Position numbers and translations under genes: made by a program. This document shows, piece by piece, positions 3,290-63,217 of a stretch of 64,000 nt of DNA. This DNA comes from a virus, in UHGV virus genome UHGV-1550212; one strand, given 5' to 3'. Positions within the stretch are counted from its first letter, which is position 1. Each line of letters opens with the position of its first letter. A model generated the notes under the pieces. That model did not search any database. It had not been told where the DNA came from and was given only the letters and a program-made list of their open reading frames with translations.

Positions 3290-4585
3290 CTATTGTTTGC
3301 GTTGTAATGTCAGTAGTCCACAGTCATATACAGGTAAAAATCCTGCAGCATTGTAGTCTTCTGCATGTGATATGTCATTGTCTATAAAATGCTCACCAGT
3401 TCGCATATTATGCCAATGACATTGTATAACATTGCTTACTAATTTATAGTCATCTACATATTTTGTAGGGTCTTCTTTTGACAAGTCTATTGTAATAACG
3501 TCGGCAGTTTTCAATTGTTCTGTGTCATCGATGATTGACTTTAGCAATGCGACAATTGTATCAGCGTCATCCCAATCCCAAATTGTGACGCATCGATAGC
3601 CTTGCGACATTGCTTTGCAACATTTGTCTGCATGACTATTTGCATGTCTATGCCAATTTGCTGCAGAGCGGCCTGTCATATACTCAAAGCTATACGCACT
3701 ATTATGCGTAAACGTTGGATTGATTTCAATTGCTATGTTCTCATAGCGTAAGTCATATGTAAATGATTCTATTTGCGGTTGCTCAAACTCAAATTGAACG
3801 TTAAGCGATTCTAACAAGTATCGTTGCCACCATTGATTTTGCTTAGATATGATGTGACCTTGCGCAAGTTTACAATGTGTAGTCATGCAATAATATGGCA
3901 CACCATAACGCATCATATTTGTACGTACAACTGCTTGTGTGCGTCGTTTTAAGTCACCGCCCCACTTGTTGCCATACCGTTCAAGCTTTGTTTGCGTTGC
4001 CAGTTGTATATTCACACATCCATTTGCTTTGCCATATCGTTCAAGTTTGACTTGCGTAATTTTGTCCATAGGCCCAAATGCATTACCAAATTGTGCAATC
4101 TTTGTAGCTTTCATTTTGTCAATATTGCCAACACCTTTGCTGCCAAATCGAACAAGCTTAGTGTCGCCAACTTTGCATTTAACATCATGCAATTGTGATA
4201 TGAATTCTACACCGTATTTGAGCAAGTTATTGATGCGACCATTATAACGCTGTTTAATGATGCCATGCGATGTTTTGCGTGGTGCATAACGAACAAATGG
4301 TGTATTAGCAAGTTCAGCATCTCGCAATTCTTCAAGTTCTTTTATTCGAGCTGCATGTTCAGATGCGTTATCATATTGCAACGCGCCAGCATGACGTTCA
4401 TATGGCAATCTTCCATGCTTACGTATGAAAGCAATTTTGTTTGCATATTGCACACGTATCTTACTATGTGTAGATACTCTTGCGCTTAATTTTGCATATG
4501 GCGTTTCTGCAATCAATTTATCACGTTCAGCTTCAAGTTCTTTTATTCGAGCTTCAAGAGCATCACCAGTTAGTCGTTCAGCCAT
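3290..4585 (-). CDS. Homing-endonuclease-like protein, paralog 1 of 5 (coiled-coil N-module, (K/E)RYGxxxG repeats, Vsr/DUF559-like C-terminal nuclease domain)
   Basis: Start placed at MAERLTGDALEARIKELEAERDK by alignment with the paralog at 16845-17876. Repeats LVRFGSKGVGN / IAQFGNAFGP / LERYGKANG / LERYGNKWGG; C-terminal IEINPTFTHN ... GYRCVTIWDWDD ... GFLPVYDCG. The N-module is duplicated in this copy. Confidence 0.55.
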   Translation of the reverse strand: MAERLTGDALEARIKELEAERDKLIAETPYAKLSARVSTHSKIRVQYANKIAFIRKHGRLPYERHAGALQYDNASEHAARIKELEELRDAELANTPFVRYAPRKTSHGIIKQRYNGRINNLLKYGVEFISQLHDVKCKVGDTKLVRFGSKGVGNIDKMKATKIAQFGNAFGPMDKITQVKLERYGKANGCVNIQLATQTKLERYGNKWGGDLKRRTQAVVRTNMMRYGVPYYCMTTHCKLAQGHIISKQNQWWQRYLLESLNVQFEFEQPQIESFTYDLRYENIAIEINPTFTHNSAYSFEYMTGRSAANWHRHANSHADKCCKAMSQGYRCVTIWDWDDADTIVALLKSIIDDTEQLKTADVITIDLSKEDPTKYVDDYKLVSNVIQCHWHNMRTGEHFIDNDISHAEDYNAAGFLPVYDCGLLTLQRKQ

Positions 4586-9732: not shown

Positions 9733-9758
9733 TGTATCAAATATTTGTATTTGTAAGT

Positions 9759-9834
9759 TGTTTTGATGCAAAATGCAAAACAATATAAAATTGTTTTGAT
9801 GCAAAATGCAAAACAATATAAAATTGTTTTGATA
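9759..9834. repeat. Tandem direct repeat, 2.3 copies of a 33-bp unit
   Basis: ttgttttgatgcaaaatgcaaaacaatataaaa repeated head-to-tail; each unit contains the inverted pair ttgttttg / caaaacaa. Lies between the ligase stop (9836) and the Cys-rich gene start (9732). Confidence 0.8.
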
Positions 9835-16825: not shown

Positions 16826-16856
16826 ATATGATACAACAAACGTGTCAATTTTGCAC
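16826..16856 (-). promoter_or_regulatory. Promoter-like motif (sense GTGCAAAATTGACACGTTTGTTGTATCATA)
   Basis: Recurrent motif ~25 nt upstream of the clamp-loader start. Confidence 0.45.
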
Positions 16857-17876
16857 AGCATGACCGCAATCGTACACAGGCAAAAAGCCTGCGTCAAGCA
16901 TCTCTTGTGTATCTTGTCCACAATCTTTAACATATTGTCGTGTTTTGAAATTATGCCAATGCTTATGAATTGTTGACTTGTCATCTGACAGCTGTGGATT
17001 GAGCGCGAAGTCAGTCGAGTCTACTGGTTCACCTGCAAGATGCTTTCTAATGGCATCAATGACTTCATTGTCATCCATCCATTCGAATATTGTAATGCAA
17101 GTGTAGCCATGCTTGAGAGCAAGCTGAGTTTTGTTGAAGTGATAGTCGAATGCAAGTGGATGATTATGCGTTGATTTGCCCATTGCATATGCAAATCCAT
17201 ATGCTGCATTGTGTGAAAACGTTGGGTTAATTTCAATGAGCAATTTGCAATGTTCATTGCTGTAGTTCAAATCAAATGAAAATCTATGCAATGAAATTTC
17301 ATCATAGCCACAATTGATGCAAAGTTCTTGCTGCAGTTTATCATGCCAATATTTGTTTATCGCTGAAATTGGGCGACCATTTGCATCTCTGCATCTCTTT
17401 GTCATGCAAAACCATGGCACACCATATCGTTGCAGCGTTGTTGCATTGATTTTTTGTTTAGGCCCAAATGCATTGCCATACAAGCGTTGTTTTGTTTCAA
17501 GCATTTTGTTAATGTTGCTTAGAGAGTCACCCCACTTTGCTCGTTTTGTTTCAATTGATTTTGCGACGTTGCCCCATGCATTGCCGTAGCGCTCTAAATT
17601 TGTTTGTCGTTGTTTAGCGACATTGCCCATGCCATTGCCATATTTTGCACGTTTTGATGCAACCATTTTCGCAGCAACATCTTTGCATTGATTGCTATGT
17701 TCTACACCATATTTGTGCAAACATGCTATTTTTCGATTGTACTTTGTTTTAATTGCGCCATGCGATGTTTTACGTGGCGCATATCTCACAAATGGCGTTT
17801 CTGCAAGCAATTTGTCTCTTTCCTCTTCAAGTTCTTTTATGCGAGCTTCAAGAGCTTCTCCTGTCAATTTTTCCAT
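16845..17876 (-). CDS. Homing-endonuclease-like protein, paralog 2 of 5
   Basis: MEKLTGEALEARIKELEEERDKLLAETPFVRYAPRKTSHG; repeats KYGNGMGN / ERYGNAWGN / LYGNAFGP / LQRYGVPW; C-terminal LLIEINPTFSHN ... GYTCITIFEWMDD ... GFLPVYDCG. Confidence 0.6.
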   Translation of the reverse strand: MEKLTGEALEARIKELEEERDKLLAETPFVRYAPRKTSHGAIKTKYNRKIACLHKYGVEHSNQCKDVAAKMVASKRAKYGNGMGNVAKQRQTNLERYGNAWGNVAKSIETKRAKWGDSLSNINKMLETKQRLYGNAFGPKQKINATTLQRYGVPWFCMTKRCRDANGRPISAINKYWHDKLQQELCINCGYDEISLHRFSFDLNYSNEHCKLLIEINPTFSHNAAYGFAYAMGKSTHNHPLAFDYHFNKTQLALKHGYTCITIFEWMDDNEVIDAIRKHLAGEPVDSTDFALNPQLSDDKSTIHKHWHNFKTRQYVKDCGQDTQEMLDAGFLPVYDCGHAVQN

Positions 17877-21750: not shown

Positions 21751-21779
21751 TATGATACAACACTTGTGACATTTTTGCT
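21751..21779 (-). promoter_or_regulatory. Promoter-like motif upstream of the primase-helicase gene
   Basis: Plus strand tatgatacaacacttgtgacatttttgc; sense GCAAAAATGTCACAAGTGTTGTATCATA. Confidence 0.4.
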
Positions 21780-25749: not shown

Positions 25750-25777
25750 ATTGTACAACGATGTTGTTAGATTTGCA
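25750..25777 (-). promoter_or_regulatory. Promoter-like motif (sense GATGCAAATCTAACAACATCGTTGTACAAT)
   Basis: Recurrent motif ~30 nt upstream of ATG 25719. Confidence 0.45.
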
Positions 25778-27880: not shown

Positions 27881-27963
27881 ATGTAGAGATTTTTGTAGTT
27901 TGTATCAATTGCATTCTATATCAATTGTATCTTGTATCAAATACATTATATTGATATATGATA

Positions 27964-28110
27964 ATTGTACTACAAAAATCCCAAATTTGCACACTTTGAT
28001 AATCAAAAGTGCAAACAAAATTCAAAGTTATATTGTACATCACAAAGTGCAAATTTGCACTTTGTGATGTTAAAATGCCCCATTGTACAATATTTTGTGC
28101 TATTTTGCAC
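27964..28110 (-). promoter_or_regulatory. Three tandem promoter-like motifs, the middle one embedded in a perfect 26-bp palindrome (28041-28066)
   Basis: attgtactacaaaaatcccaaatttgcac (27964-27992), attgtacatcacaaagtgcaaatttgcac (28032-28060), attgtacaatattttgtgctattttgcac (28082-28110); palindrome cacaaagtgcaaatttgcactttgtg. Confidence 0.5.
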
Positions 28111-28701: not shown

Positions 28702-28735
28702 GCAAATATATTTTTGTTTGTATATGTACATAAAA

Positions 28736-28765
28736 GAGCAAGTTCTCAATGTGGAGAACTTGCTC
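28736..28765 (-). terminator. Hairpin (12-bp stem gagcaagttctc / gagaacttgctc, loop aatgtg)
   Basis: Perfect inverted repeat downstream of the tRNA/non-coding region on the minus strand. Confidence 0.4.
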
Positions 28766-29159
28766 AGCTGACCTGTTGCCAGGTGAAAGCGTGGTGCAGC
28801 ACCTTGTGCTGCAATGGCTATGCTGCCATCGCCATAACGGGCTGAGCATTGCCCAGCATCATTACACGACCAGCTGCATTAAGCGTACGCTTTGCTTTGT
28901 TGAAAAATTTGCCAGTTATCTGGTATCTGCACATCTATTCAAGCGACCTACTATGCAATCAAATGCCTGTCGAGCCCAATGTTTGAGCAGTTGTTTGTCA
29001 GATGCTCAGCTGACTGCAGTCTTTCTGAGTGTATCAAGTTCAGCGATTCTGCATCTTTGCTAAATGGCAATAGTTCAGGTGGACTCGCCGAGAATCGAAC
29101 TCGGGTCTTACATAGCGCATCCTTGACTTGGTCCTGTAAACAGGGTTGTCAACATGCAT
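28766..29159 (-). ncRNA. Candidate structured non-coding RNA region downstream of the tRNA cluster, including a tRNA-like 3' half at about 29075-29105
   Basis: About 390 nt with no credible ORF, more GC-rich than surroundings, internal repeats (gctcagctgac twice) and a T-arm/acceptor-like CCGAGTTCGATTCTCGGCGAGTCCACC for which I could not find a pairing 5' acceptor strand. Confidence 0.25.
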
Positions 29160-29230
29160 TGCAATACGACAGGACTCGAACCTGCGACCTCGGATTGGAC
29201 GTCCGCGCTCTTACCGCTGAGCTACGTATT
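29160..29230 (-). tRNA. tRNA-Gly(UCC)-like, atypical (G at position 33, G1:G72 mismatch); possibly a pseudo-tRNA
   Basis: Minus strand GAATACG-TA-GCTCAGCGGTAAGAGC-GCGGA-CGTCCAA-TCCGA-GGTC-GCAGG-TTCGAGT-CCTGT-CGTATTG; canonical D and T arms, anticodon TCC. Confidence 0.5.
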
Positions 29231-37473: not shown

Positions 37474-37525
37474 ATTGCAGAGGTTTAGTATATTTGACTC
37501 TATATTATTTATAGATTAATACTAC

Positions 37526-37651: not shown

Positions 37652-37677
37652 CTCTTCGTGCTCCTGATTACATAGAT

Positions 37678-38370
37678 GTGCGGTTTACGCTCGTAGATGA
37701 TATGAGCATACATTGTGCATATATGCCAAACATATATGTGTTTGCTGATGGCAATGAGTATGCAATATCTCCAATAGGTTCACAATCACTTGATTATGAC
37801 GGCTCATGTATTGTACGTATTACCAAGTCAGACTGGATTGAAATGTTTGGCGCTGGTGTTACACAAGGCAGACTTAAATTTGGCTATGGTACAAATGAGC
37901 TTGAATTTTGTGAATTGATAAGCACTGCAACTGCTGAAGTCAAATTCGTTATTGGTTATGAGCAAAACCAGTCTGTCACTGCAACATTTAGTGATTTGCT
38001 GCATAATCCACTTGTCGCAACAAACAACAATTCTGCACAAGCAACAATTACATATACATTTAGTCATGCGACATTTAGAACAGCAGCATTTACGATTATC
38101 GGTAATGTGACATTTATTCCAGGCGGTGATGTAAGTAAAACAGCTATAATTCTTGCGCCTAATTATAGTATAACAATTAAGTACACTACGTCATCAACGC
38201 CAAAACTATTTGAGCATTCAATGACATTTGAGCGTAACAATGAAATGCTTGAGTATGTTGGCACTGAAGTAGACAGACATGCGTATTGTCAAATGAGACG
38301 TAGAACTACGGGCTCAACTGTATATTGTCATGTGTATATTGATGATAGCATGCTTAATATGATGGATTGA
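37678..38370 (+). CDS. Hypothetical protein (230 aa), one of only two plus-strand genes
   Basis: ORF begins with GTG at 37678 (ATG alternative at 37702); followed by a strong hairpin. Confidence 0.5.
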   Translation: MRFTLVDDMSIHCAYMPNIYVFADGNEYAISPIGSQSLDYDGSCIVRITKSDWIEMFGAGVTQGRLKFGYGTNELEFCELISTATAEVKFVIGYEQNQSVTATFSDLLHNPLVATNNNSAQATITYTFSHATFRTAAFTIIGNVTFIPGGDVSKTAIILAPNYSITIKYTTSSTPKLFEHSMTFERNNEMLEYVGTEVDRHAYCQMRRRTTGSTVYCHVYIDDSMLNMMD

Positions 38371-38385
38371 TAGTTGTAATATTGC

Positions 38386-38430
38386 GCAAAAAGAAAGCCG
38401 AACTGAATTTCAGTTCGGCTTTCTTTTTGC
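38386..38430. terminator. Perfect 21-bp-stem hairpin with flanking A/T runs; bidirectional terminator between convergent genes
   Basis: gcaaaaagaaagccgaactga / att / tcagttcggctttctttttgc. Confidence 0.7.
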
Positions 38431-41766: not shown

Positions 41767-44700
41767 TCAATTACATGCTGAATGTCCGCAGTTGGTGCAT
41801 CGAACACAGCCATCAAACTTGACCATGTCACCGCCGCATTCAGGACACTTTGCATACATCTTTGAGCCATCTTGAATATGCAGTTTCAATGCGCGCCCAA
41901 TTGCTTTGCAGAATGTTCCGACAGATGCAAAGCTTTTTGCAGTTTGGTCGACAATTTCGCCAAGGTCAATGCCATTGCGAAGCATCGTTGAGTACAGTCG
42001 AGTAATTGTTTGCTGCTCGTCTGAACCAAGACGTTCTGAGATATTATCATAGTGCTGCAAGAATGACAAATTATCACCAAGCTTGTAGTGCTTCTTATCA
42101 GTCTTTGTGATTGTCGTTTGTTCAATGCCTTGCAACTTGTCGAATTCATCTTTGTCAAGTTCAAATGCAAAGATTTCATAAGGTCGACCGTCATCACAGC
42201 CTACAAGAATACACCACTTGCGCTTATACACTGACACGCAATACACTGCAGCAGGCAATACTGGTTTTCGTTTTGAGCGATGACCAGATTGCAAGATGTG
42301 CGACTTGTCTTTTGACTGCTTGTCATCTTTTACGAGAACACCTGCACGTGAGCCATCTCGATAAATTGTGCAGCCTTTGCAGCCAGATTTCCATGCAGTC
42401 AGATAAATTTCACGAACAAGCTCTTTTGTTGCAGAGTTTGGAATGTTGACCGTTACAGAAATTGACGAGTCAATGTATTTTTGCAATGCACCTTGCAATT
42501 TCACCTTGCCAATCCAGTCAACATCTTCAGTAGTTGCCTTGTAGTATGGTGATTGAATAAGCAATTCATCAATGACTGCTTGCGGAGCATTTGACAACCA
42601 AGCTTTGATGCGAGACATTTCTGCTTCTGACCATTCAATGCCAGTATCTTTGACAAGAGTAAATTTGCCATCGCCAAGCTGCACTCGTTTACAAATCCAC
42701 TGCATCAACGGATAATGAACTACAGCGTATTCAATGAACTTGTCACCAGTAGTCTCATCAATGAAGTTGATGTCGGCCTCATTATCAACTGCAGTTGGCT
42801 TACGACGACGTTTATGTAGTGGCATAAATACGGGCTCAATACCAGACGTTGTCTGAGTCATCAAAGCTGTAGTGCCTGTTGGTGCAATTGTGGTCGTGTT
42901 AATGTTTCGACGGCCAAATTGCTGATAAGTTTTGATGTGCTCATCATCAATCAGTTCAGATAGCATACGCTGGATGAACTTTGATTGCACATCTGTGTCA
43001 TAGTCAAATATTGCAAATGAGCCACGAATCTTTGCCAAGTCAATTGACGCTTCATAAGTCGCCTTTACAAGCCATTGTTGCATAGTGACTGCGAAGTCAA
43101 TTGACTCCTGCGAGCCATAACGCAAGCCAAGCATCGCCATTGCATCGCCAAGCGCAAGGAAGCCCATGCCATATCGACGAGTGTTTGTCAGTTTATCATA
43201 AACTTTGTGCCACAAGTCAAGTTCAGTCTTTTTGATGTCAAAGTCTTCTTTATCTGACCGAACCTTTGCAATGATTCGTTGCACTGCTTCAATTTCAAGC
43301 TGCACAAGGTCATCCATGATGACTGCACAGTCATATGTATCTTTGTAGAATGTCTCAAAGTCAAATGATGCATCAGCAGTCCAAGGATTAAGCACATATG
43401 CAGTCAAATTGCGATGCGACAAAATGCAGCTTGCATATGCAGCGAGAGGCTGTTCACCGCAATTTAGTGTATTGACTACTTGCTTGTCATTGACAGCAAT
43501 AAAGAAATTGTGGAAGTCTTCTACTGTGCCATTGTACACATCTGCTTTGTTCATGTGACGTGTTGCAACGACTTTGACAATTGCATCACCAGTAGTGTCA
43601 ATGTCTGCATATTTGCTGCAGTCACCTAACGCTGCGCAAGCATCACAGCAATATGCTTGTTCACGATTGTCATAAGAAACTTCGAATTCTTTACCACAGC
43701 ACTCGCATTGTTTGATAACTGTGTTTCGTTCTGTTTTTACAAGCTCGTCAGTCTTCAATGCAATTGATAGCTTATCTGCGCTTGGCATATCAATTGCCCA
43801 CAATGAGTCATTTGTTGCAAGGTCAATTGCATTCTTGAAATCGCCATTAGCAAGCCTGAACTCATGATTTGCTGTGCAATTGATGACATGGCCGTCATCA
43901 AGCACAATTTGAATGATTTGCGCATTATGTGCAGTCAATCTGGGTCGACGCATTGTGCGCACAACGAGCTTGCCATTAGAGTCAAGACAATATACTGGAA
44001 TGTCTTCACCACTATCAGCAAGCTCTTTGAATGTCTTCAAACCTGAGCCATCAGCAACAAGTACTTTTGTGTCACCTGTGAAGCATGGATTTGTTGAGCG
44101 CTCTTCATACATTTTGCCATATGCTTTCGAGTTCGACTCTTCCATGATACGGTCCCAGAAGAACACGCCGGGTTCTGCAGATGCCCATACGTTATCAACA
44201 ATTTTGTCAAACAATGCTTTTGCATCTGATGTCTTATGCAGCTCTTGGCCATTAGAGCCACGCCAAACATGCTCAAACTGTTGTTCTGCAAGCACTGCAC
44301 GCATAAATGCATCAGTAAGCTTGATTGAAATGTTTGCGCCTGTGATTTTCGTCAAGTCCTTTTTTGCATCAATGAACTTATCTGCGTCAGGATGCTCAAT
44401 TGACAATGACAACATCAATGCGCCACGCCTGCCATTTTGTGCAACTTCTTTTGTTGATGTTGAAAAACGTTCCATAAATGACACTACACCAGAAGTTGTA
44501 ATAGCACTGTTATGCACTTCTACGTCTTCTGGACGAATGTGCGACAAATCATGACCAACGCCACCACGACGCTTCATCAACTGAACTTGCTCTTCATCTG
44601 TTTTGAAGATGCCGCCATATGAATCTGCGTCATTGCCAATTACATAGCAATTTGACATTGACGTGTAACCGCCAAGACCAATACCAGCCATTGGAGAACC

Positions 44701-44988
44701 ACCAAGCACAAACCGCTTAAAAGGCTCAAGTAAATATGCAAGTCGTTCTTTTGACAATACACGTTTGCCTGTCTGTTCTTCAAATTGTGATTCGATGCGG
44801 TCAAATTCATTGACCCAGCGCTCATGCATATCAGACAATGAGTGTTCATACAAATTGTCTTTGTCATGATGCAAGTATTTTGACATGCATATGTCAGCAG
44901 CCATTGAATCGCCTGTAAATTCATGCGTCAGTGTAGTGTGCACTTCAGCATATTCAGGCGACCCAATTTGAATGGGATGTTTTGTCAT
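41767..44988 (-). CDS. nrdJ: Ribonucleotide reductase, class II-like (NrdJ-type) catalytic chain, interrupted by an intein
   Basis: RRGALMLSLSIEHPDADKFIDAK signature; catalytic motif split as ...ERSTNP | intein | CGEQPLAAY, giving NPCGEQPL after excision; C-terminal zinc ribbon CPECGG ... CVRCTNCGHSAC. Start at MTKHPIQ (ATG 44988). Confidence 0.75.
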   Translation of the reverse strand: MTKHPIQIGSPEYAEVHTTLTHEFTGDSMAADICMSKYLHHDKDNLYEHSLSDMHERWVNEFDRIESQFEEQTGKRVLSKERLAYLLEPFKRFVLGGSPMAGIGLGGYTSMSNCYVIGNDADSYGGIFKTDEEQVQLMKRRGGVGHDLSHIRPEDVEVHNSAITTSGVVSFMERFSTSTKEVAQNGRRGALMLSLSIEHPDADKFIDAKKDLTKITGANISIKLTDAFMRAVLAEQQFEHVWRGSNGQELHKTSDAKALFDKIVDNVWASAEPGVFFWDRIMEESNSKAYGKMYEERSTNPCFTGDTKVLVADGSGLKTFKELADSGEDIPVYCLDSNGKLVVRTMRRPRLTAHNAQIIQIVLDDGHVINCTANHEFRLANGDFKNAIDLATNDSLWAIDMPSADKLSIALKTDELVKTERNTVIKQCECCGKEFEVSYDNREQAYCCDACAALGDCSKYADIDTTGDAIVKVVATRHMNKADVYNGTVEDFHNFFIAVNDKQVVNTLNCGEQPLAAYASCILSHRNLTAYVLNPWTADASFDFETFYKDTYDCAVIMDDLVQLEIEAVQRIIAKVRSDKEDFDIKKTELDLWHKVYDKLTNTRRYGMGFLALGDAMAMLGLRYGSQESIDFAVTMQQWLVKATYEASIDLAKIRGSFAIFDYDTDVQSKFIQRMLSELIDDEHIKTYQQFGRRNINTTTIAPTGTTALMTQTTSGIEPVFMPLHKRRRKPTAVDNEADINFIDETTGDKFIEYAVVHYPLMQWICKRVQLGDGKFTLVKDTGIEWSEAEMSRIKAWLSNAPQAVIDELLIQSPYYKATTEDVDWIGKVKLQGALQKYIDSSISVTVNIPNSATKELVREIYLTAWKSGCKGCTIYRDGSRAGVLVKDDKQSKDKSHILQSGHRSKRKPVLPAAVYCVSVYKRKWCILVGCDDGRPYEIFAFELDKDEFDKLQGIEQTTITKTDKKHYKLGDNLSFLQHYDNISERLGSDEQQTITRLYSTMLRNGIDLGEIVDQTAKSFASVGTFCKAIGRALKLHIQDGSKMYAKCPECGGDMVKFDGCVRCTNCGHSACN
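43462..44085 (-). mobile_element. Intein (208 aa) inserted at the catalytic Cys of the reductase
   Basis: Starts CFTGDTKVLV (block A), block B TANHEF, block F DVYNGTVEDFHNFFIAV, ends ...VVNTLN followed by Cys +1; middle has a small Cys cluster (CECCGK ... CCDAC ... C), no LAGLIDADG motif seen. Confidence 0.65.
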
Positions 44989-45752: not shown

Positions 45753-45797
45753 TGTAGTAGAGGTTAAAATATATTAATATATAATAATTATACTACA

Positions 45798-48455: not shown

Positions 48456-50111
48456 TTATGCAAGTAGTGTTTGCAGCATATAGCAGCCTTTTGCATATGC
48501 AACAATTGCTTTTGCAGGATTGTTCTTGATGTATGCAGGTAACTTGAGCCAAATCAATGACACAAGTACTTTCTGTCGCAGCGTCAAATCAAGTTCATCG
48601 ATATTGTAGCCAATGACTTTTGCTCTGACATCGCCATCAACATAATCGAATTGCTGATATGCTGACTGATTGAATGCATCATAGCCAGACAAGCCATACG
48701 CAAACTTTGCAATGTCATAATCGATGTCACCTGTCATCTTAACGTCACCAAAGTAGCCTCTTGGGTCAATGAACATGCATTTTGATGAATCTGCACTGAA
48801 CATCGTATTTGACGTATTCGGGTCACCATGAATGAATGACCAATTTTCGCATGCATAGTCAATTGAATCTTCTTGCGACAAGAAGAGTCTTAACTTGCTC
48901 ATCAGTTCATCGAATGGCATCAATGCAATGCCATTGAATGATTTGATGCCTGCTACAAGTGACTTGACTTCAGCATATCTTGCAATAGTAGTCTCAATGT
49001 ACTCTTTGCGCATTGCGTCAATCATTTGTTGTCTGCTAACGGGCCAAATCTCGTCATTGTCAAGATTGCTTGCATGCAATTCATTGATTGACTGCTTGAA
49101 TGTCGTCATGCAGCCGCGCGCAATTGCAGCATATCTACGCTCAATATCAACTTTATTGAGGAACTGATGCACAGTCACTCCGTTAATTTTCGACATTTTG
49201 ATGAAGTCTTCACCAGTTTCAAATATCGATGGAATGACTGTTGATTCTGCATTCATCGCATGACGATACCACTCTTGCTCTTTCTGAATGAGTGCCAAGC
49301 CTCGAGCATTTGTAGCAGATTTTGTAACAATATCGCCATCAATGCTAATGCTATTGAAATATCGCACTTCATTGTCACGTGCAGTCTTGACTGCTTCACT
49401 GACAAATACACCACGTTCACCATATGAATGACAACCAGCAATTTCATATCTGTCTACAAATGTAACGTTGGTCATCAAATCAGCAAAATCAGCATTGCTA
49501 TCATTGTGCTGCATATCAATGACATTGTTATGAAATGCTGCAGGTACATAGTATGCACCGACAATGCCACTATGATATGTTGACTCACATATGTGGTCAA
49601 GCATATATGATTCTGCATCTGCATATGAACCTACTTTGTTGTACACTTCTGCAGGAATAAGATGAAGTCTGCAATCAATATCATTTGACGTGCAGCAAGT
49701 TATGCAGCCAGTTTTGAATTTGTCAAGTGGCAATTCAATATCGCCAAGCCACACATCAGACCAATGATAGAATACATTGCATTCACCAATGTTGTTAGCA
49801 ATAAACATTGCTACATCTGCGCATGCTTTTGCTGAGCCATCAGCTTTGTCATGCACAATAGTTGACAATTTGATATCTGGCGCAAATGCTGCAGCATGTT
49901 CATGAATCATTGCTGCATGAGTGTCATTTGCACATGCAACAATGAATTCATCAAACTGTTGAGCATAGGATGTCAAAATCTTTGCGAGCACTGTTTGTTT
50001 GCCTGCATTTACAAGCGTTTTTGGAATGTAGTTATTACCAGTCATTGTTGACATGCGAGTGCCCAAACCACATGCAATGATTGCTAACACATTTGGATAT
50101 TGATGAGACAT
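48456..50111 (-). CDS. Bifunctional sugar-phosphate nucleotidyltransferase + aminoglycoside-phosphotransferase/choline-kinase-fold kinase
   Basis: N-terminal LAIIACGLGTRMSTMTGNNYIPKTLV resembles the LicC/RmlA-type signature; C-terminal kinase motifs FIHGDPNTSN (HGDxxxxN) and FIDPRG. Start at MSHQYPNV (ATG 50111). Confidence 0.65.
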   Translation of the reverse strand: MSHQYPNVLAIIACGLGTRMSTMTGNNYIPKTLVNAGKQTVLAKILTSYAQQFDEFIVACANDTHAAMIHEHAAAFAPDIKLSTIVHDKADGSAKACADVAMFIANNIGECNVFYHWSDVWLGDIELPLDKFKTGCITCCTSNDIDCRLHLIPAEVYNKVGSYADAESYMLDHICESTYHSGIVGAYYVPAAFHNNVIDMQHNDSNADFADLMTNVTFVDRYEIAGCHSYGERGVFVSEAVKTARDNEVRYFNSISIDGDIVTKSATNARGLALIQKEQEWYRHAMNAESTVIPSIFETGEDFIKMSKINGVTVHQFLNKVDIERRYAAIARGCMTTFKQSINELHASNLDNDEIWPVSRQQMIDAMRKEYIETTIARYAEVKSLVAGIKSFNGIALMPFDELMSKLRLFLSQEDSIDYACENWSFIHGDPNTSNTMFSADSSKCMFIDPRGYFGDVKMTGDIDYDIAKFAYGLSGYDAFNQSAYQQFDYVDGDVRAKVIGYNIDELDLTLRQKVLVSLIWLKLPAYIKNNPAKAIVAYAKGCYMLQTLLA

Positions 50112-50136
50112 TGTGTAGTGTTGCTTATATGAAAAT

Positions 50137-50192
50137 ATTGTACAACATGCATTGCAAATTTGCAATGATACAACATGCATTGCTATTTTGCA
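50137..50192 (-). promoter_or_regulatory. Two tandem promoter-like motifs; the first contains the 18-bp palindrome cattgcaaatttgcaatg
   Basis: attgtacaacatgcattgcaaatttgca + atgatacaacatgcattgctattttgca, 26 nt upstream of ATG 50111. Confidence 0.5.
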
Positions 50193-52558: not shown

Positions 52559-52595
52559 TGTAGTAGAGGTTTGTTAATTTATTATTTATAGATAT

Positions 52596-57232: not shown

Positions 57233-57366
57233 ATGATATGATATATATCAAGTGCAGCAATTGAACAGATTGCAAAAACAATGCTCAGACTGTAAAGTCT
57301 GAGCATTGAACGACTAAATTGTACATCTTCCACAATGATATAGAATCATTGTTAATATTGTATTGA

Positions 57367-57478
57367 TATTGTACAACATGCATTGCATATTTGCAATGAT
57401 ACAACATGCAAAATGCACTTGCACTTTGATGCAAAGTACTGCGTACACAACATGCATCGCGTATTTGCATTTTGACGC
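57367..57478 (-). promoter_or_regulatory. Array of three tandem promoter-like units
   Basis: attgtacaacatgcattgcatatttgca / atgatacaacatgcaaaatgcacttgca / tactgcgtacacaacatgcatcgcgtatttgca; closely related copies at 50137-50192 and 58517-58590. Confidence 0.5.
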
Positions 57479-57482
57479 AATG

Positions 57483-58565
57483 TCATTGTTGTTTATGCCA
57501 GCCATATGATGCCTGACCAGCATCATACACTTCTACGAAGCCATGGTCGTACATAAAATCTTCATTACGAGTGCCCTTGCCCCCATTAGTGCCAAGAATA
57601 CGGTCTGCGCCATGCATAAGCAGCATATTATTTGTGACATGTTGCTTTGTCAGCATATTGAACCAGTGTTTGCTATATGACAAGCCAAGACCATCAAAGC
57701 CCAGCTTTGTGTACACACCACCGTCAAACTTGCTTAAATCACAATATGATAACACAGATTCAGGGTCATATGTCTTGATAAAGTGCTTAAAGATTCGTTC
57801 AGCACCACCAACAACTTTGGTTGCTGCACAAAGACGTAGCAATTCATATTGATAGCGCTTATTGTATCGTGGACGACCAAATGTCATAAGTTGATGAATG
57901 ACATAACCACCAAGCAACTCAAGTGGATGACCTTCAATCAACGCAAGATTGATAAAATTGCCTGAGCACTTGCCTTGCAAATGATGTTCAATCAAAAATT
58001 GATTTGCAGTATACTTGTCAATTTCAACAACTTTAAGCTTGCGAGCATATACAATCTTTGATTTGTCTACGATTTGATGCTTGATGTGATTGATAACTTT
58101 CTTGGCGTCATCCCAGTCCCACACATGAATGCAATGAAAGCCTGCTGATTTGGCGATGTCTGTTTTCTTTGCATGAATATCACAAGGCAAATGCGAATCT
58201 TTTGCATCATGCATAAACAGATGTTCAAATGAATGTGTGCTGTTATGTGAAAATGCAGGATTGATGTTAATGACAATATTGTCATGTCGAAAATCGAAGA
58301 CTTCATCGCCAATGACAAAGTTGCGCTCAAAATTTATACCGACATGTTTGAGTAACACTTGATGCCACACATCTTTATAGGCTGATTCAAGCTTGCTTAG
58401 CTCATCACAGTTTGCAATGTTTTTGTAACGTTGAATAGCAGCATCAAAGTCAAGATTGACTTCAGCGTAGTCTGCATTTTTATCGTAGTGAAATTTTGAG
58501 CTCATGTGTATAATTTTGTATGAGATTATTGTACAACATGCAAATGCATGTTGCATTTGATGCAA
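57483..58565 (-). CDS. Homing-endonuclease-like protein, paralog 3 of 5 (nuclease-like domain N-terminal, different downstream module)
   Basis: DNIVININPAFSHN ... GFHCIHVWDWDD near the N-terminus; C-terminal GFVEVYDAG shared with the other paralogs; middle region with ANQFLIEHHLQG. Confidence 0.55.
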   Translation of the reverse strand: MHQMQHAFACCTIISYKIIHMSSKFHYDKNADYAEVNLDFDAAIQRYKNIANCDELSKLESAYKDVWHQVLLKHVGINFERNFVIGDEVFDFRHDNIVININPAFSHNSTHSFEHLFMHDAKDSHLPCDIHAKKTDIAKSAGFHCIHVWDWDDAKKVINHIKHQIVDKSKIVYARKLKVVEIDKYTANQFLIEHHLQGKCSGNFINLALIEGHPLELLGGYVIHQLMTFGRPRYNKRYQYELLRLCAATKVVGGAERIFKHFIKTYDPESVLSYCDLSKFDGGVYTKLGFDGLGLSYSKHWFNMLTKQHVTNNMLLMHGADRILGTNGGKGTRNEDFMYDHGFVEVYDAGQASYGWHKQQ

Positions 58566-58590
58566 AGTACTGCGTACACAACATAAAGTA
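58517..58590 (-). promoter_or_regulatory. Promoter-like repeat units between two homing-endonuclease-like genes
   Basis: attgtacaacatgcaaatgcatgttgcatttgatgcaaagtactgcgtacacaacat; shares ttgatgcaaagtactgcgtacacaacat with 57420-57460. Confidence 0.45.
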
Positions 58591-58612
58591 CAAGTTTGTC
58601 TTTTGATAGACT

Positions 58613-59674
58613 TTACTTTGTATTGCTACGCGTCATTGTTAAATGACCGCAATCATACACATCAACTTCTGTTTTGCCAAGCATGCATGTATGACAATTT
58701 ATTTTGAAATCTGCTGCAGCGTAATCAGGATAGTTTAGTGGAGATTCTTTTGACAAATCAATTTCAATTGTGTCAGTAGTTTTAAGCTGTTCAGTACCTG
58801 CAATGATATCTGCAATAAGATTGATAACTTCTTCTTGTGAATCCCAATCAAACACAGTTATGCAACGATAGCCTACATCAAGTGCAAGTTTTGTTTTATT
58901 GTAATGGTATTGCGCACCAATAACATTGTTGTCTTTTGCTCGACCAGTTAAATATGCAAAACTAACAGTGCAGTTGTGCGTAACTGTTGGACAAATTTCT
59001 ATAAGTAACTTTGCAGGCTCATACTGCAAATCATATGTTTGATTATTGATGTTAAACTCGTACTGTGTATCAATTGCCAACTGTCGTAATAACGCATCAT
59101 GCCACATCATATTACATTTAGAAATTGTTTTGGATGACAATCTGCATTGAGGCAATTGACATGGCCAATCTACGCCGTACATTTGTTGTGTTGTTTGACG
59201 CATTTTGTTAACATCACCAAAATGATTGCCATATCGATGCTCTTTGGTTTTAAGCGACTGCTCAATATTGACATTGCCTACACAACCATAACGTTCAAGT
59301 TTTGTTGCAGCAGTTTTGCTAACATCACCATGTCCATTACCAAATTTGGCGACTTTAGTTGCAAGTATTTTATGACTTGGGCCAAATGCATTGCCATACA
59401 ATTCTTGTTTAGTCGCAAGCATTTTGTCGATATTACAACCAGCGCCATAAGTGTTATGCATAGTTTGCATACGCTGTCGAATAAATTTTGGCACAGATAA
59501 AGGACTTTCTACACCATATTTGCGTAAGCAACTGATTTTGCATGCGTACTTTTGCTTGATGACAGAATGTGCATTTCGACGTCCTATGTAAGTATTTTCT
59601 GATGTAGCAGCAAGCTCTGCATCTCTAAGAACTTCAAGTGCAGCAATTCGTGCTTCAATTTCTTCAGATGTCAT
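58613..59674 (-). CDS. Homing-endonuclease-like protein, paralog 4 of 5
   Basis: MTSEEIEARIAALEVLRDAELAAT; repeats LERYGCVGN / HRYGNHFGD / QMYGVDWP; LLIEICPTVTHN ... GYRCITVFDWD ... VDVYDCGH. Confidence 0.6.
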   Translation of the reverse strand: MTSEEIEARIAALEVLRDAELAATSENTYIGRRNAHSVIKQKYACKISCLRKYGVESPLSVPKFIRQRMQTMHNTYGAGCNIDKMLATKQELYGNAFGPSHKILATKVAKFGNGHGDVSKTAATKLERYGCVGNVNIEQSLKTKEHRYGNHFGDVNKMRQTTQQMYGVDWPCQLPQCRLSSKTISKCNMMWHDALLRQLAIDTQYEFNINNQTYDLQYEPAKLLIEICPTVTHNCTVSFAYLTGRAKDNNVIGAQYHYNKTKLALDVGYRCITVFDWDSQEEVINLIADIIAGTEQLKTTDTIEIDLSKESPLNYPDYAAADFKINCHTCMLGKTEVDVYDCGHLTMTRSNTK

Positions 59675-59694
59675 TTTTTAATAGCATATTGATA

Positions 59695-59723
59695 ATTGTA
59701 CAACATACAAATGCGTTTTGCAT
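59695..59723 (-). promoter_or_regulatory. Promoter-like motif (sense TGCAAAACGCATTTGTATGTTGTACAATT)
   Basis: 21 nt upstream of ATG 59674. Confidence 0.45.
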
Positions 59724-59759
59724 TTTTGATGTAGCAATTGCTTGCACAGTTTGCAAAAA

Positions 59760-59790
59760 AGAACCGCTTGCAATCTAATTGCAAGCGGTT
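59760..59790 (-). terminator. Hairpin gaaccgcttgcaat-cta-attgcaagcggttc (14-bp stem)
   Basis: Perfect inverted repeat downstream of the capsid gene on the minus strand. Confidence 0.5.
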
Positions 59791-60021
59791 CAATGAATAC
59801 GTTTGTCAGAAACTGTCAATGTGTGCAATCGCTTGAAGAGTTAGCTGAACAGCTTGTTGATGCGATTGCTGCATTGGTGACTACCAAGCAGCCCATTGAA
59901 CATTGGATTCGACATCAACGTCTTTGTGGTTGTTGTTGAACTCACCAAGCCAGCAAGTATCATTTAGCAAGTTTCCAAACTTAACGTACTTGTCGTTCCC
60001 CGGCTTGGGTGGCGCAGGTTG

Positions 60022-61737
60022 TCAAATCCAGCCGTAGTCGCTGTGGATAGCGAAGGTGAGATAAGCCAACTCGGGATACATACCCGTCTCCGCGAGAGCG
60101 TAATCCGACTCAATCAGCAACTTAGGTGCTGCTGTACCCTCAGCGGTTAATTCCACACTTGATGCAAGGTCATATGGCATGAATACACATCCCTGGTTGA
60201 CATTCTCTACGTCAACGCCGTCAGCAGTCTTGTTCGTACGAAGAACGAGAACAGTGTTATCGTTCAGCGGCTGCTTAGGATTGCAATAGATTTTAATGCC
60301 AGCCAAGTCACCTGCATAATACAGGTTCTTGTTGTCCTGTACCAGCGTATTGTCAAGAGCTGCAACAAAGTTCTTCTGAGCCTTAATTGCAACCAAGGCA
60401 ATCGTATTGACCACAGCAGCATCACCAGCACCGAAACGCGACAGGTTGCCAATGATTGTCGAAGCAGCCAGGATACGAGTTGCGATACGAGCCTGACGGG
60501 TAATCTGGTTCTCAGCCGAGCTGTTCGATTCAGCGTTAGGAACCATGCCGAACTCAGCCGTGCGGTCTACACCCATCTTGTCAACGAATGCAGGAGCCTG
60601 GAATTCCGAGAATGCCTTGGCAGTCGAACCAGCGTAGCCAATGTACAAGTTCAGGTTGTAGCCCTGAGCAGCCAACAGCTGAGCATGTGTCGTAACACCA
60701 AGTGCACGCATGCGCTTCAGACCATTGTCGTTGATTGACTGCGTGATTTCATTCTGCATTGCATTCTTGATGATTGCAACTGCATCCAAACCGCGAGCAC
60801 GGAGGTCCTTAACCTGGCGACGAGTCAGAGCACCCCAAGTCTGGTACGTCTTAACTTCGATAGCCTTTGAGAAGGTGCGGAGCTCCAGCATGTTCGGGTT
60901 GCCAGCCTCAGCCTCAGAACGAGACATTGGATTGCCGTCAAGGTCATCCATTGCAGCGAAGCCGTGGATGTGTTCGTCACCAGCCGAAACCAGGTCGAAC
61001 ATAACCTCAGTCATGCCAGTCAGCATGTCAGTTACAGCACCTGTAGCGTCAACCGAGTAGATTTTCGATGCAGCCATTGCAACATCAGCCAACGACTTGT
61101 CAGGAGCAACAGTCATTGCGCCACCAGCGCCAACGGTATATACGCCTTCATTGCGAACTACGAGGTAGCCTGCAACACGCGATACCTGTACGAACGTTAC
61201 CTTGGCAGCAAGCTCACCAGCAGCTGAACCGCCGATGTACAGAACTTGACCCTTCTTGAGGCCATGAACCATTGTCTGCGAAGCAACATTGTACAACTCC
61301 TTCCACTTGATGAGGAAGTAGCGAGGACCCTTGGCTGCGTTCAACTTGCCACCACCATACACGTAGTCTACATAGTCCAGCTGAACCAGCGGGCTGTATA
61401 CAGGAATGGCCGGGAGCAGGTCGAACAGAATCGTGTTGGCTGCGATGTTCATGTTCAGAGCCAGAACATTGGCAGCTACATCGATTGAACCACGCTTACG
61501 CGACGGGTCATGGAACTGTGCTTGCGTACCTGGGTCAGCAGGGAAAGCGACCGGACCTACGCCATTGAGATTCTGCGAATACGTCGACTCAAACGACTCG
61601 TTCATATACTGAACGTTCTGAGCGATTGATGCGAGCAGATACTTCTTAGCGGGCGAAAGCTTGGAGTCAAACGACTCATCAAGAACAGGGCCCCACTTTT
61701 TCAGCAATGCATCAATCTGTGTACGTTTTGCGTTCAT
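60022..61737 (-). CDS. Major capsid protein (T4 gp23-like)
   Basis: N-terminus TQIDALLKKWGPVLDE versus T4 gp23 TKAELLNKWKPLLEGE; internal QVKDLRARGLDA versus AQDLRAVHGMDA; codon usage noticeably more GC-rich at third positions than neighbours. Confidence 0.8.
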   Translation of the reverse strand: MNAKRTQIDALLKKWGPVLDESFDSKLSPAKKYLLASIAQNVQYMNESFESTYSQNLNGVGPVAFPADPGTQAQFHDPSRKRGSIDVAANVLALNMNIAANTILFDLLPAIPVYSPLVQLDYVDYVYGGGKLNAAKGPRYFLIKWKELYNVASQTMVHGLKKGQVLYIGGSAAGELAAKVTFVQVSRVAGYLVVRNEGVYTVGAGGAMTVAPDKSLADVAMAASKIYSVDATGAVTDMLTGMTEVMFDLVSAGDEHIHGFAAMDDLDGNPMSRSEAEAGNPNMLELRTFSKAIEVKTYQTWGALTRRQVKDLRARGLDAVAIIKNAMQNEITQSINDNGLKRMRALGVTTHAQLLAAQGYNLNLYIGYAGSTAKAFSEFQAPAFVDKMGVDRTAEFGMVPNAESNSSAENQITRQARIATRILAASTIIGNLSRFGAGDAAVVNTIALVAIKAQKNFVAALDNTLVQDNKNLYYAGDLAGIKIYCNPKQPLNDNTVLVLRTNKTADGVDVENVNQGCVFMPYDLASSVELTAEGTAAPKLLIESDYALAETGMYPELAYLTFAIHSDYGWI

Positions 61738-61825: not shown

Positions 61826-63217
61826 TCATTTTTCAATCTTTTTGAGCAATGCATGACCACAATCATAGACTTCGACGAAGCCTGACGCAATCATTTGTTG
61901 CCTATCAAACCCATTGTCAAGTAGATGTTCCCATGTCTTTGTATTGTGCCAATGCAATTGAATTGATGATTTATCTGTACTAAGCTGCGGATTTTTTGAA
62001 AAGTCTGCACAGTCAATTTTGTCACCGTTAAGATGCTTACGAATGCATTCAATGACAGTGTCGTGGTCATCCCAGTCCCATATTGTTATGCATACATAGC
62101 CATGTTGTAATGCAATTTGTGTCTTGTCAAAATGACTATCATGTCTCTTTGGCCTATTACGCTTTGTGCGCTTAGTAATATATGCATATGAGTATGTTGA
62201 GTTATGCGAAAATGTTGGATTCACTTCAATCAACAATTTGCAATGTTCATTTTCATAATGCAAGTCATATGAAAAGCCAAGTAGCTTAACATCGTCATAA
62301 CTGCAATCAATGTTAAGCTCTTGTTGCAACTTATCATGCCAAAATTGATTTGGCTTAGATATTATGTTGCCTTGACTGTTTATGCAGTTAGAAGTCATAC
62401 ATGACCATGGCACGCCATAACGCTCAATGTTTGTTTTGTTTGCACTTGCTTGAATTTTTGACAATGGGCCCCATGGATGACCATACTTTGCACGCTTGAC
62501 ATCTGCACCACGTTTAGCAACTTCACGATAATCGCCATAACGCTCTTTTCTTGTAGCAAGCATTTTTGCAATATTGCCCGCGCCACGAGAGCCATATCTA
62601 AGCTCTTTAGTCTTTTGAGCTTTGGCGTAATCACCACAAAATGCATTGCCATATCGAGCAATTTTTGTTGCTTTCATTTTTTCAATGTTGCCTGCACCAG
62701 CATTGCCATAACGTTCAAGTTTTGTTTGCTTGGACAATTCAACATTGCCAAATTTGTTGCCATAACGCACTAATTTTGTTTCTTGTGAACGTTGACGTAT
62801 TTCTTGCACTTGTGCACAGTATTCTACGCCATAGCGTTTTAACATTGTTATTCGTTGATTATATGCACGTTTAATAGGTGCATGCGATGTTCGTTTTGGC
62901 CCATATTTAACAAACTCAGTAGATGCAAGTAATTCATCACGCTCACGTTCAAGTTCTGCAATTCGTTGTTGTATATGGACATCATACACAGGCTGCTCAG
63001 AAATGTCATCAATAGCTGTCGTTTCTAATTTAGCAAGTTTGCGTTTAAGAGCTTTTGTTGTTTGCGTGCAGCTCATTTTTATCAATGCATGTGCATGTCT
63101 GCCACAGTCAAGTACAATGTTAGGCTCATTTGCAAGGCGTTCATCACGTTTACATTCTGCAGCATGTATTGCATCAATAAGTTGTCGTCTCTTTACATTA
63201 TATTCGTCTTGTGTCAT
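61826..63217 (-). CDS. Homing-endonuclease-like protein, paralog 5 of 5
   Basis: IAELERERDELLASTEFVKYGPKRTSHAPIK; repeats VRYGNKFGN / ERYGNAGAGN / IARYGNAFCGD / LRYGSRGAGN / ERYGDY / AKYGHPWGP / ERYGVPW; LLIEVNPTFSHN ... GYVCITIWDWDD ... GFVEVYDCGH. Confidence 0.6.
   Translation of the reverse strand: MTQDEYNVKRRQLIDAIHAAECKRDERLANEPNIVLDCGRHAHALIKMSCTQTTKALKRKLAKLETTAIDDISEQPVYDVHIQQRIAELERERDELLASTEFVKYGPKRTSHAPIKRAYNQRITMLKRYGVEYCAQVQEIRQRSQETKLVRYGNKFGNVELSKQTKLERYGNAGAGNIEKMKATKIARYGNAFCGDYAKAQKTKELRYGSRGAGNIAKMLATRKERYGDYREVAKRGADVKRAKYGHPWGPLSKIQASANKTNIERYGVPWSCMTSNCINSQGNIISKPNQFWHDKLQQELNIDCSYDDVKLLGFSYDLHYENEHCKLLIEVNPTFSHNSTYSYAYITKRTKRNRPKRHDSHFDKTQIALQHGYVCITIWDWDDHDTVIECIRKHLNGDKIDCADFSKNPQLSTDKSSIQLHWHNTKTWEHLLDNGFDRQQMIASGFVEVYDCGHALLKKIEK

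Follow-up and report, generated by a model that had tools for sequence, protein, structure and literature searches.

Closely related repeat blocks occur at about 50.1, 57.4 and 58.5 kb of a 64,000-nucleotide (nt) stretch of the virus genome UHGV-1550212, which in the following we simply call the window. We consider it likely that these blocks are copies of the phage's own promoter, and that promoter units have been recombined between promoter sites. A single promoter would be a unit of 28 nt, and in the blocks two or three of these putative promoters stand in tandem. Comparison with close relatives shows that these predicted promoters are hot spots of unit gain, unit loss and sequence exchange.

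A family of promoter-like repeats

The repeat blocks are real, as two strings recur exactly where chance would give practically no match. The string ATTGTACAACATGCATTGCA is found at 50137-50156 and 57368-57387, with a copy carrying 3 mismatches at 50165-50184 (0.14 matches expected from shuffled sequences), and the 28-nt string TTGATGCAAAGTACTGCGTACACAACAT at 57426-57453 and 58557-58584 (0 expected). BLASTN of contig L001, which is 100% identical to the window, against the window aligned 50135-50179 with 57366-57410 over 45 nt at 97.8% identity (44/45, E 9e-15, family D5) and 57400-57453 with 58532-58584 over 55 nt at 92.7% (E 4e-13, family D17). The similarity thus reaches far past the promoter hexamers. 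A further match, over 83 nt at 85.5%, is to a copy in contig L005, another part of the genome of a close relative.

An earlier note on this DNA had described three closely related blocks, and a likeness confined to the short promoter hexamers, which it had named as its refutation, is not what is seen. Its strings and positions stand, but the relation is pairwise and not three-way: the 57.4-kb block is a composite that has one part in common with each of the other two, and the 50.1-kb and 58.5-kb blocks share the generic core only. The endonuclease-like gene HE2 is also preceded by a related copy, the fourth, at 59690-59744 (family D15), and all four blocks are members of a motif family with 20 copies across the whole window. 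That two of the blocks bracket a gene was described correctly, as those at 58.5 and 57.4 kb flank the endonuclease-like gene HE1 (57483-58505, minus strand).

Read on the minus strand, which carries nearly all genes of the window, the blocks consist of TTGCAA or GTGCAA, 17 nt, and TACAAT or TATCAT. The consensus of the family on this coding strand is (G/T)TGCAAA-N12-13-TGT(T/A)GTA(C/T)(A/T)AT, in which a -35-like TTGCAA/GTGCAA box stands 17 bp from a -10-like TAnnAT box and the TGT(T/A)GTA leading into the -10 box is strongly conserved across the window copies. A position weight matrix (PWM) derived from 17 sites detected 20 sites above 20 bits, all of them on the minus strand, and one weak plus-strand match; shuffled sequences reached at most 13 bits. 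All 20 sites are intergenic, and for 17 of them the distance from the end of the -10 box to a start codon, or at site 30408 to a tRNA cluster, is 21-84 nt. A 64-kb composite of a relative likewise gave 20 PWM matches, all on the coding strand and at corresponding positions. The genes that these sites would serve include a ribonucleotide reductase with an intein-like insertion, both topoisomerase II subunits, the ligase operon, tRNAs, HE1, HE2 and g551, with the capsid gene not among them. The motif is also kept before the homologue of g290 in a lineage with 74% capsid identity to the window (contigs L003, L007 and L008).

Because of the motif statistics, the strand and the position before genes, we read the motif as a putative early or middle promoter of the phage itself. 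The description of the blocks as promoter-containing is supported in the same manner, with TTGCAA-17-TACAAT or TTGCAA-17-TATCAT on the coding strand, 21-54 nt before gene starts.

Block anatomy and unit turnover among relatives

Within a block one unit directly follows another, the -35 box of each touching the -10 box of its neighbour, and a period of 28 nt results; all units described here lie on the minus strand. At 50.1 kb, unit P1 (50137-50165; TTGCAA at 50165-50160, 17 nt, TACAAT at 50142-50137; PWM score 45.7 bits) has a -35 region that is a perfect 18-bp palindrome, CATTGCAAATTTGCAATG, and a -10 box that ends 26 nt before the ATG of g551. It is abutted by P2 (50165-50193; TTGCAA-17-TATCAT). 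This doublet would serve g551 (48456-50111, minus), which is a nucleotidyltransferase/kinase-like gene and not an endonuclease (Pfam NTP_transferase, phrog_4098).

The 57.4-kb array is composed of three units. U1 (57368-57396; TTGCAA-17-TACAAT) provides the 44/45 match to P1 and the P2/P1 junction at 50.1 kb. U2 (57396-57424; GTGCAA-17-TATCAT) has its -35 box overlapped by the imperfect palindrome CAAAGTGC-AAGT-GCATTTTG. The degenerate upstream unit U3 with its linker (57425-57475) reads ATGCAAATACGCGATGCATGTTGT[GTACGCAGTACTTTGC]ATCAAA, where the 16-nt insert GTACGCAGTACTTTGC interrupts the -10 position and creates the small palindrome ACTTTG-CAT-CAAAGT. Comparison with the homologous doublet of contig L015, which lacks the insert, identifies U3 as an ordinary upstream unit, TGTTGTATCAAA, split by these 16 nt, and the 28-nt string shared by the 57.4-kb and 58.5-kb blocks is this insert plus its flanks. 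The block before HE1 (58527-58606) is accordingly built from a degenerate unit with the same 16-nt insert and linker, followed by a promoter with TACAAT at 58533-58528, whose -10 box ends 23 nt before the ATG and whose -35 box is overlapped by the perfect palindrome CAAATGCA-ACA-TGCATTTG. In the fourth block, before HE2 (59690-59744), TACAAT lies at 59700-59695. The distance from block to ATG is 21-23 nt for HE1 and HE2, each of which has a block of its own. A terminator scan placed an intrinsic terminator just upstream of the HE2 promoter (59761-59791, minus), and the two form a predicted terminator-plus-promoter composite.

The window is a stretch of a 128.6-kb human-gut metagenome contig (ENA ERZ28666419) with a GC content of 40.5%, and its source is a large uncultivated myovirus-like jumbo phage of the human gut. 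Its nearest isolates are the jumbo phages MA9V of Chryseobacterium, PAU of Sphingomonas and PTm1 of Tenacibaculum, with a capsid protein identity of at most 37%. A megablast search of the 56-60 kb region against 50,697 phage records gave no match, and exact-string scans of IMG/VR detected the blocks in a single further contig only. The comparison set consisted of five independent metagenome assemblies of phages that are 94-99% identical, including L002 (backbone 94-99% identical to the window), to whose phage genome L005 also belongs. The lineage of L003, L007 and L008 and the more diverged L011, which is free of endonuclease-like genes, were used in addition.

The number of units differs at four sites among these relatives. 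Firstly, at the 50.1-kb site two units are present in the window and in L015, and one in L002 and L010; the site was not seen in L016. Secondly, at 57.4 kb the window and L002 have the order U3-link-U2-U1, L010 has U3-link followed by one hybrid unit, L016 has U3-link-U1, and L015 has no array. The other two sites were seen in the window and L002, and not in L015, L010 or L016. At 25759 the single unit of the window is joined in L002 by an extra unit of 33 nt. At 21761, taking the window as reference, L002 has 34 additional nt that resemble the window's promoter at 16837.

The extra unit of the window at 50.1 kb carries the TATCAT box and the spacer of the U2/U1 junction at 57.4 kb and is no simple local duplication, which points to templated copying between sites 7 kb apart. 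In L015 the doublets before HE1 and before HE2 hardly differ from each other; those of the window do. In the case of the endonuclease-like gene HE4, an exchanged segment ends between the -35 box of the next promoter, located within the last HE4 codons, and its -10 box. In L002, a 245-nt open reading frame (ORF) is inserted just downstream of the 37525 promoter. As a whole, about 16 structural differences of at least 8 nt separate the window from the L002 genome, and 9-10 of these lie within about 80 nt of a promoter site. By comparison, then, the putative promoters do behave as recombination substrates. The earlier suggestion that the repeats provide homology for recombination and gene shuffling is supported by the varying unit number, the mosaic promoters and the swaps of endonuclease alleles that end in or beside promoters.

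A mechanism compatible with these observations can be outlined. Units and sub-unit patches would be copied from one promoter site to another while the phage replicates, with short-patch homologous recombination or gene conversion as the most probable route, and this would produce the long identities between particular blocks. As a result, promoters would evolve in concert and the unit number would vary between near-identical phages. The same short homologies would coincide with the ends of exchanged endonuclease alleles. Doublets and triplets would then serve g551, HE1 and HE2, with one array left between HE1 and a terminator.

That the repeats are an assembly artefact or a transposon-like insertion, such as a miniature inverted-repeat transposable element, we regard as extremely improbable. 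Three Logan contigs (L010, L012 and L016) do start inside a block, which indicates that assemblers struggle there. However, independent assemblies in the ENA, IMG/VR and Logan data sets agree on the arrangement. The 113-nt segment that the window has in excess of L015 at 57.4 kb showed neither terminal inverted repeats nor a target-site duplication, and a transposon was rejected. Replication-origin iterons were also considered and set aside, as the units fit the genome-wide promoter consensus with its 20 sites and the array is missing in a near-identical relative, although no test was aimed at iterons.

A different explanation would be that the likeness of the blocks is kept by function. About half of the copies have a palindrome centred on the TGCAAA box; inverted repeats of at least 8 bp are present at 8 of the 20 promoters against 6% of control windows, and the 77-nt segments upstream have a minimum free energy of -20.1 kcal/mol against -14.7 kcal/mol for controls. 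The TGCA-rich palindromes could thus be operators of a dimeric phage regulator, or attenuator hairpins, that co-regulate genes. In one variant an endonuclease would bind its own promoter, as I-TevI does. The TGCAAA-centred palindromes lie about 28 bp upstream of the start site, a usual place for repressors, and all blocks discussed here contain one. The segments GTACTTTG, CAAAGTGC and GCA(C/T)TTTG are able to pair in two alternative ways. Changes in L002 are also symmetric or lead from wobble to Watson-Crick pairs: the symmetry of a 34-bp palindrome at 28041 is retained via a paired C..G to T..A change, and two other stems switch between G.T and G-C. These symmetry-keeping changes, of which there are only about three events, nevertheless favour a nucleic-acid hairpin over a sequence-specific operator. 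Whole units are gained and lost between near-identical genomes, so that no fixed operator layout seems to be needed, and the 44/45 and 28/28 identities cover positions that vary freely in other promoters. True terminators precede the promoters at 59704, 54826 and 45039; the palindromes in the blocks themselves overlap the -35 box and have no T-runs. Overall, function as the main cause of the likeness appears rather unlikely to us, and it can coexist with the copying of promoter units.

The 57.4-kb array is the sole promoter site with a strong terminator between the promoter and the next gene. The roughly 90 nt between the array and g585 (57273-57367, minus) contain a small hairpin and then a strong intrinsic terminator (stem 57308-57279, TTTTTG), and the stretch folds with -30.1 kcal/mol (z = -5.1). 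In L015, the terminator stem downstream of the array site is conserved and its loop is changed. Conceivably, the array drives a gene for a small non-coding RNA of about 90 nt (57362-57273), with the other blocks being generic promoters. Such a gene would account for tandem promoters followed by two hairpins, the second an intrinsic terminator, for the low folding energy, and for a terminator stem that is conserved while its loop changes. Against this, an Rfam search returned tRNAs only and no family for this stretch, the middle of the putative RNA varies among relatives that are 95-97% identical, the first hairpin is lost in L015, which moreover lacks the array altogether, and the terminator is equally explained as the end of the HE2-HE1 transcription unit. 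We thus see a dedicated RNA gene as very unlikely. More generally, the stretch after the array is either a candidate short transcript or the mere 3' end of the endonuclease transcription unit, and the array itself may either give rise to an RNA of about 90 nt or be dispensable, left behind as a by-product when units were copied. As the array is missing in L015, the by-product reading is favoured.

Several points weigh against promoter copies recombined between sites as the explanation of the blocks. Promoter activity and timing are deduced from sequence and position only, and an array pointing into a terminator is odd for a working promoter. Intergenic DNA tolerates insertions and deletions and most intergenic regions hold a promoter, so that the enrichment of structural differences near promoters cannot be separated from relaxed constraint. 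For gene conversion, end states were seen and no intermediates. At unconstrained columns the blocks do not form a uniform subclass, and the likeness concerns specific pairs only (70%, 55% and 52% against about 37%). A separate promoter subclass of TGCA-rich blocks was tried and rejected on the same columns, with an identity of 0.37 for B-B and 0.40 for A-A pairs. Furthermore, the capsid relatives infect Bacteroidota, and the genes lack Shine-Dalgarno sequences. The main sigma factor of Bacteroidota is described as recognising a different consensus.

Given the missing Shine-Dalgarno sequences and the Bacteroidota-infecting capsid relatives, a phage sigma factor encoded in L005, and not a host factor, could be the reader of the motif. 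L005 encodes on its minus strand (646-1542), outside the region homologous to the window, a protein of the sigma-70 family in which Pfam recognises regions 2 and 4 (E 2.5e-8 and 1.8e-7). This protein is a candidate reader of this promoter family or of late promoters. Concerning PAU-, PTm1- and MA9V-like phages, a literature search yielded no description of their promoters.

Endonuclease-like genes and neighbouring features

Five endonuclease-like paralogs are encoded in the window: HE1 (57483-58505), HE2 (58613-59674), HE3 (61826-63217), HE4 (16845-17876) and HE5 (3290-4585). They match DUF7487 and PHROG homing-endonuclease families, with a PHROG 'homing endonuclease' match at 1.9e-41. HE1, on the minus strand, matches phrog_3339 and phrog_559 and is modelled as an I-Bth0305I-like nuclease domain plus a large Mom/GNAT-like domain. 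Sequence searches of the endonucleases against PDB and NCBIfam gave no match and the fold search alone was informative. The AlphaFold model of HE1 (pLDDT 84.9) matched 3r3p_A, the catalytic domain of I-Bth0305I, over 97 residues (Foldseek probability 0.99, E 0.04, TM 0.59), and matched 8bv8_A, the GNAT-fold DNA-modification enzyme Mom of phage Mu, more strongly (E 4e-8). We infer the assignment of residues to these domains from secondary structure and alignment lengths. The predicted fusion of a nuclease with a Mom-like domain is an unusual architecture for a homing endonuclease. The HE1 family has more than 700 metagenomic homologues, mostly of 470-590 amino acids (aa) with N-terminal DUF7487 repeats. 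Pfam also detects DUF7487 repeats in HE2 (minus strand).

As judged from the relatives, the endonuclease-like genes are mobile or variable. In L011 the capsid gene is directly followed by g585, with neither HE1 nor HE2. The lineage of L003, L007 and L008 has one endonuclease-like gene after the capsid gene and none before, and in L003 this single gene carries a 352-nt deletion. In L002 the N-terminal two thirds of HE2 are replaced (56% aa identity overall), as is the interior of HE4. HE3, on the minus strand upstream of the capsid gene, is substituted by a different paralog (29% aa identity) in L002, L009 and L015, and the exchanged segment extends from within the HE3 promoter (about 63263) to conserved C-terminal codons (61893).

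It had been suggested in the earlier note that the repeats travel with the endonuclease cassettes, and the repeats could indeed be cassette ends, with each mobile gene bringing its own promoter block and the blocks marking the boundaries. HE1 is bracketed by direct repeats of 55-80 nt, both HE1 and HE2 have a block of their own immediately before the ATG, and the genes vary among relatives as described. Yet L015 keeps HE1 without the downstream array, its intergenic region being about 130 nt shorter, and lacks 16 of the 28 shared bases upstream of HE1, namely the 16-nt insert. Blocks also precede genes that are no endonucleases: the 50.1-kb doublet lies before g551, a third copy of the U3-link-U2 block in the L002 genome (L005) lies before an unrelated gene, and an extra unit in L002 lies before a topoisomerase gene. 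Two of the five paralogs have no such block, as HE4 has no promoter of this kind upstream and the HE3 promoter does not contain the shared strings. Exchanged segments of HE2 and HE4 end within coding sequence and not at blocks. Because L015 has HE1 without the array and blocks precede non-endonuclease genes, the putative promoter repeats do not travel with the endonuclease cassettes and are not specific to endonuclease genes. The notion of cassette ends consequently seems quite unlikely to us. Among the relatives, we found no close relative with HE1 deleted and no single hybrid block without HE1; the endonuclease-free L011 is too diverged for mapping of the junctions.

A further link between the two elements would be that promoter blocks are the binding or cleavage targets of the resident endonucleases with their I-Bth0305I-like nuclease and Mom/GNAT-like domains. 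Breaks made by an endonuclease at promoters would then be repaired from other promoter copies, causing unit turnover. If true, this would explain why endonuclease genes sit at promoters, and it would describe a homing system aimed at a dispersed regulatory repeat and not at a unique gene site. We hold this to be very doubtful, and retain recombination between the phage's own promoter copies as the likely source of the blocks.

The major capsid gene (60022-61737, minus), whose product belongs to the gp23 family (Pfam), ends in a TGA stop. After it, an in-frame extension of 54 codons follows (60021-59857, minus), QPAPPKPGNDKYVKFGNLLNDTCWLGEFNNNHKDVDVESNVQWAAW*. The encoded protein sequence is kept in L002, L015 and the diverged L011, where the nucleotide changes include synonymous ones and a clean indel of 3 nt. 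In the L003/L007 lineage the extension is absent and the gene ends with TAA, then a terminator. The pattern suggests programmed TGA readthrough or local recoding, by which the capsid protein would gain a C-terminal extension. No suppressor tRNA was found in the window. Just upstream of the capsid gene of L003 (9790-9950), three tandem copies of a different motif, TGTGTCATTCTGCCGACTGCCACAAAAT, are present and have no equivalent in the window; a role as late promoters or as a regulatory repeat is possible in that lineage.

Other features were noted along the way in the window. The large subunit of ribonucleotide reductase (41767-44988, minus) contains an intein-like insertion (Intein_splicing match at residues 318-497, below the Pfam cut-off), which is a putative further selfish element of this genome. 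Near-identical leaders, AACCTCTACTACAATG, take the place of a Shine-Dalgarno sequence at 45753-45775, 52559-52580 and 37480-37500 (minus), and it is precisely at such a leader, behind the 37525 promoter, that L002 has its extra 245-nt ORF. Tandem repeats of short units are present in 5' leaders or intergenic DNA (27903-27951 and 9755-9820), with copy numbers unlike those of L002: downstream of the 27973 promoter the window has 2 copies of a 21-nt unit, CAATTGATATAGAATG..., and L002 has 5, and a 33-nt palindrome-containing unit is found at 9755-9820. At 37665-38387 the place of a plus-strand gene for 222 aa is taken in L002 by an unrelated one for 216 aa. A bidirectional terminator and a conserved flank delimit this swap, in which no promoter block takes part. 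Beside a seven-tRNA cluster, ARAGORN called a permuted tmRNA (28727-29169, minus); Rfam gave no tmRNA at gathering score and the call is probably a false positive.

Parallels in other phages

Tandem strong early promoters are represented by A1-A2-A3 of T7 and by the early promoters of T5. There, several promoters of the sigma-70 type also follow each other in tandem on one strand. In the phage described here, however, the units abut at a fixed period of 28 nt, and their number differs between near-identical genomes.

Free-standing homing endonucleases provide a second comparison, i.e. seg and mob of T4-like phages and the EDxHD enzyme I-Bth0305I. Like these, the endonuclease-like genes are found around the major capsid gene with conserved genes on either side, vary among close relatives in presence and by allele swaps, and each have a predicted promoter of their own. 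With I-Bth0305I there is also the match of the HE1 model to the catalytic domain (3r3p_A) at the level of predicted structure. In contrast to these systems, the repeats lie outside the endonuclease genes, and their variation is independent of that of the genes. Unlike I-Bth0305I, the HE1 family has a Mom/GNAT-like second domain, and its longer members have DUF7487 repeats.

The closest known parallel of the putative promoter blocks is the promoter-early stem-loop (PeSL) cassette, known from the T4-like phages RB49/phi1, PST/T4 and nt-1/KVP40 (Arbiol et al. 2010, PMC2839356; Comeau et al. 2014, PMC4122927). PeSLs are composite repeats of a promoter and a stem-loop, conserved over about 100 bp, that flank variable genes and act as recombination linkers (PMC2839356, PMC4122927). 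Several characteristics are common to both systems. In both, repeats dispersed over intergenic regions contain a sigma-70-like promoter with hexamers 17 bp apart, which in part of the copies here is accompanied by an inverted repeat that could form a stem-loop. Conservation extends tens of bases past the hexamers (here over 45 nt at 98%, 55 nt at 93% and 83 nt at 85.5%). Close relatives show insertions, deletions and replacements whose ends lie in or beside the elements. Direct repeats bracket single genes, and some of the elements lie beside variable genes, here in a phage with a capsid of the gp23 family.

The differences concern both sequence and use. In our phage the boxes are TTGCAA or GTGCAA with a conserved TGT(T/A)GTA before the -10 box, and the palindrome overlaps the -35 box with a T-run in some copies only, whereas PeSLs have a separate G/C-rich stem upstream. 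Change often concerns one 28-nt promoter unit at a time, from which tandem doublets and triplets result. Core DNA-metabolism genes (ribonucleotide reductase, topoisomerase and the ligase operon) and tRNAs are served as well, and the bracketed genes are homing-endonuclease-like and not ORFans. Finally, the phage is an uncultivated gut jumbo phage with only 37% capsid identity to its nearest isolates.

For the biology of these phages, the findings have consequences at several levels. The repeats break short-read assemblies of the phage. The probable promoter consensus of an uncultivated lineage of human-gut jumbo phages is now defined, which aids the annotation of transcription units. The gain, loss and exchange of units in five independent metagenome assemblies extend the idea behind PeSLs, namely that regulatory cassettes serve as recombination linkers, beyond the classical T4-like phages of Proteobacteria.

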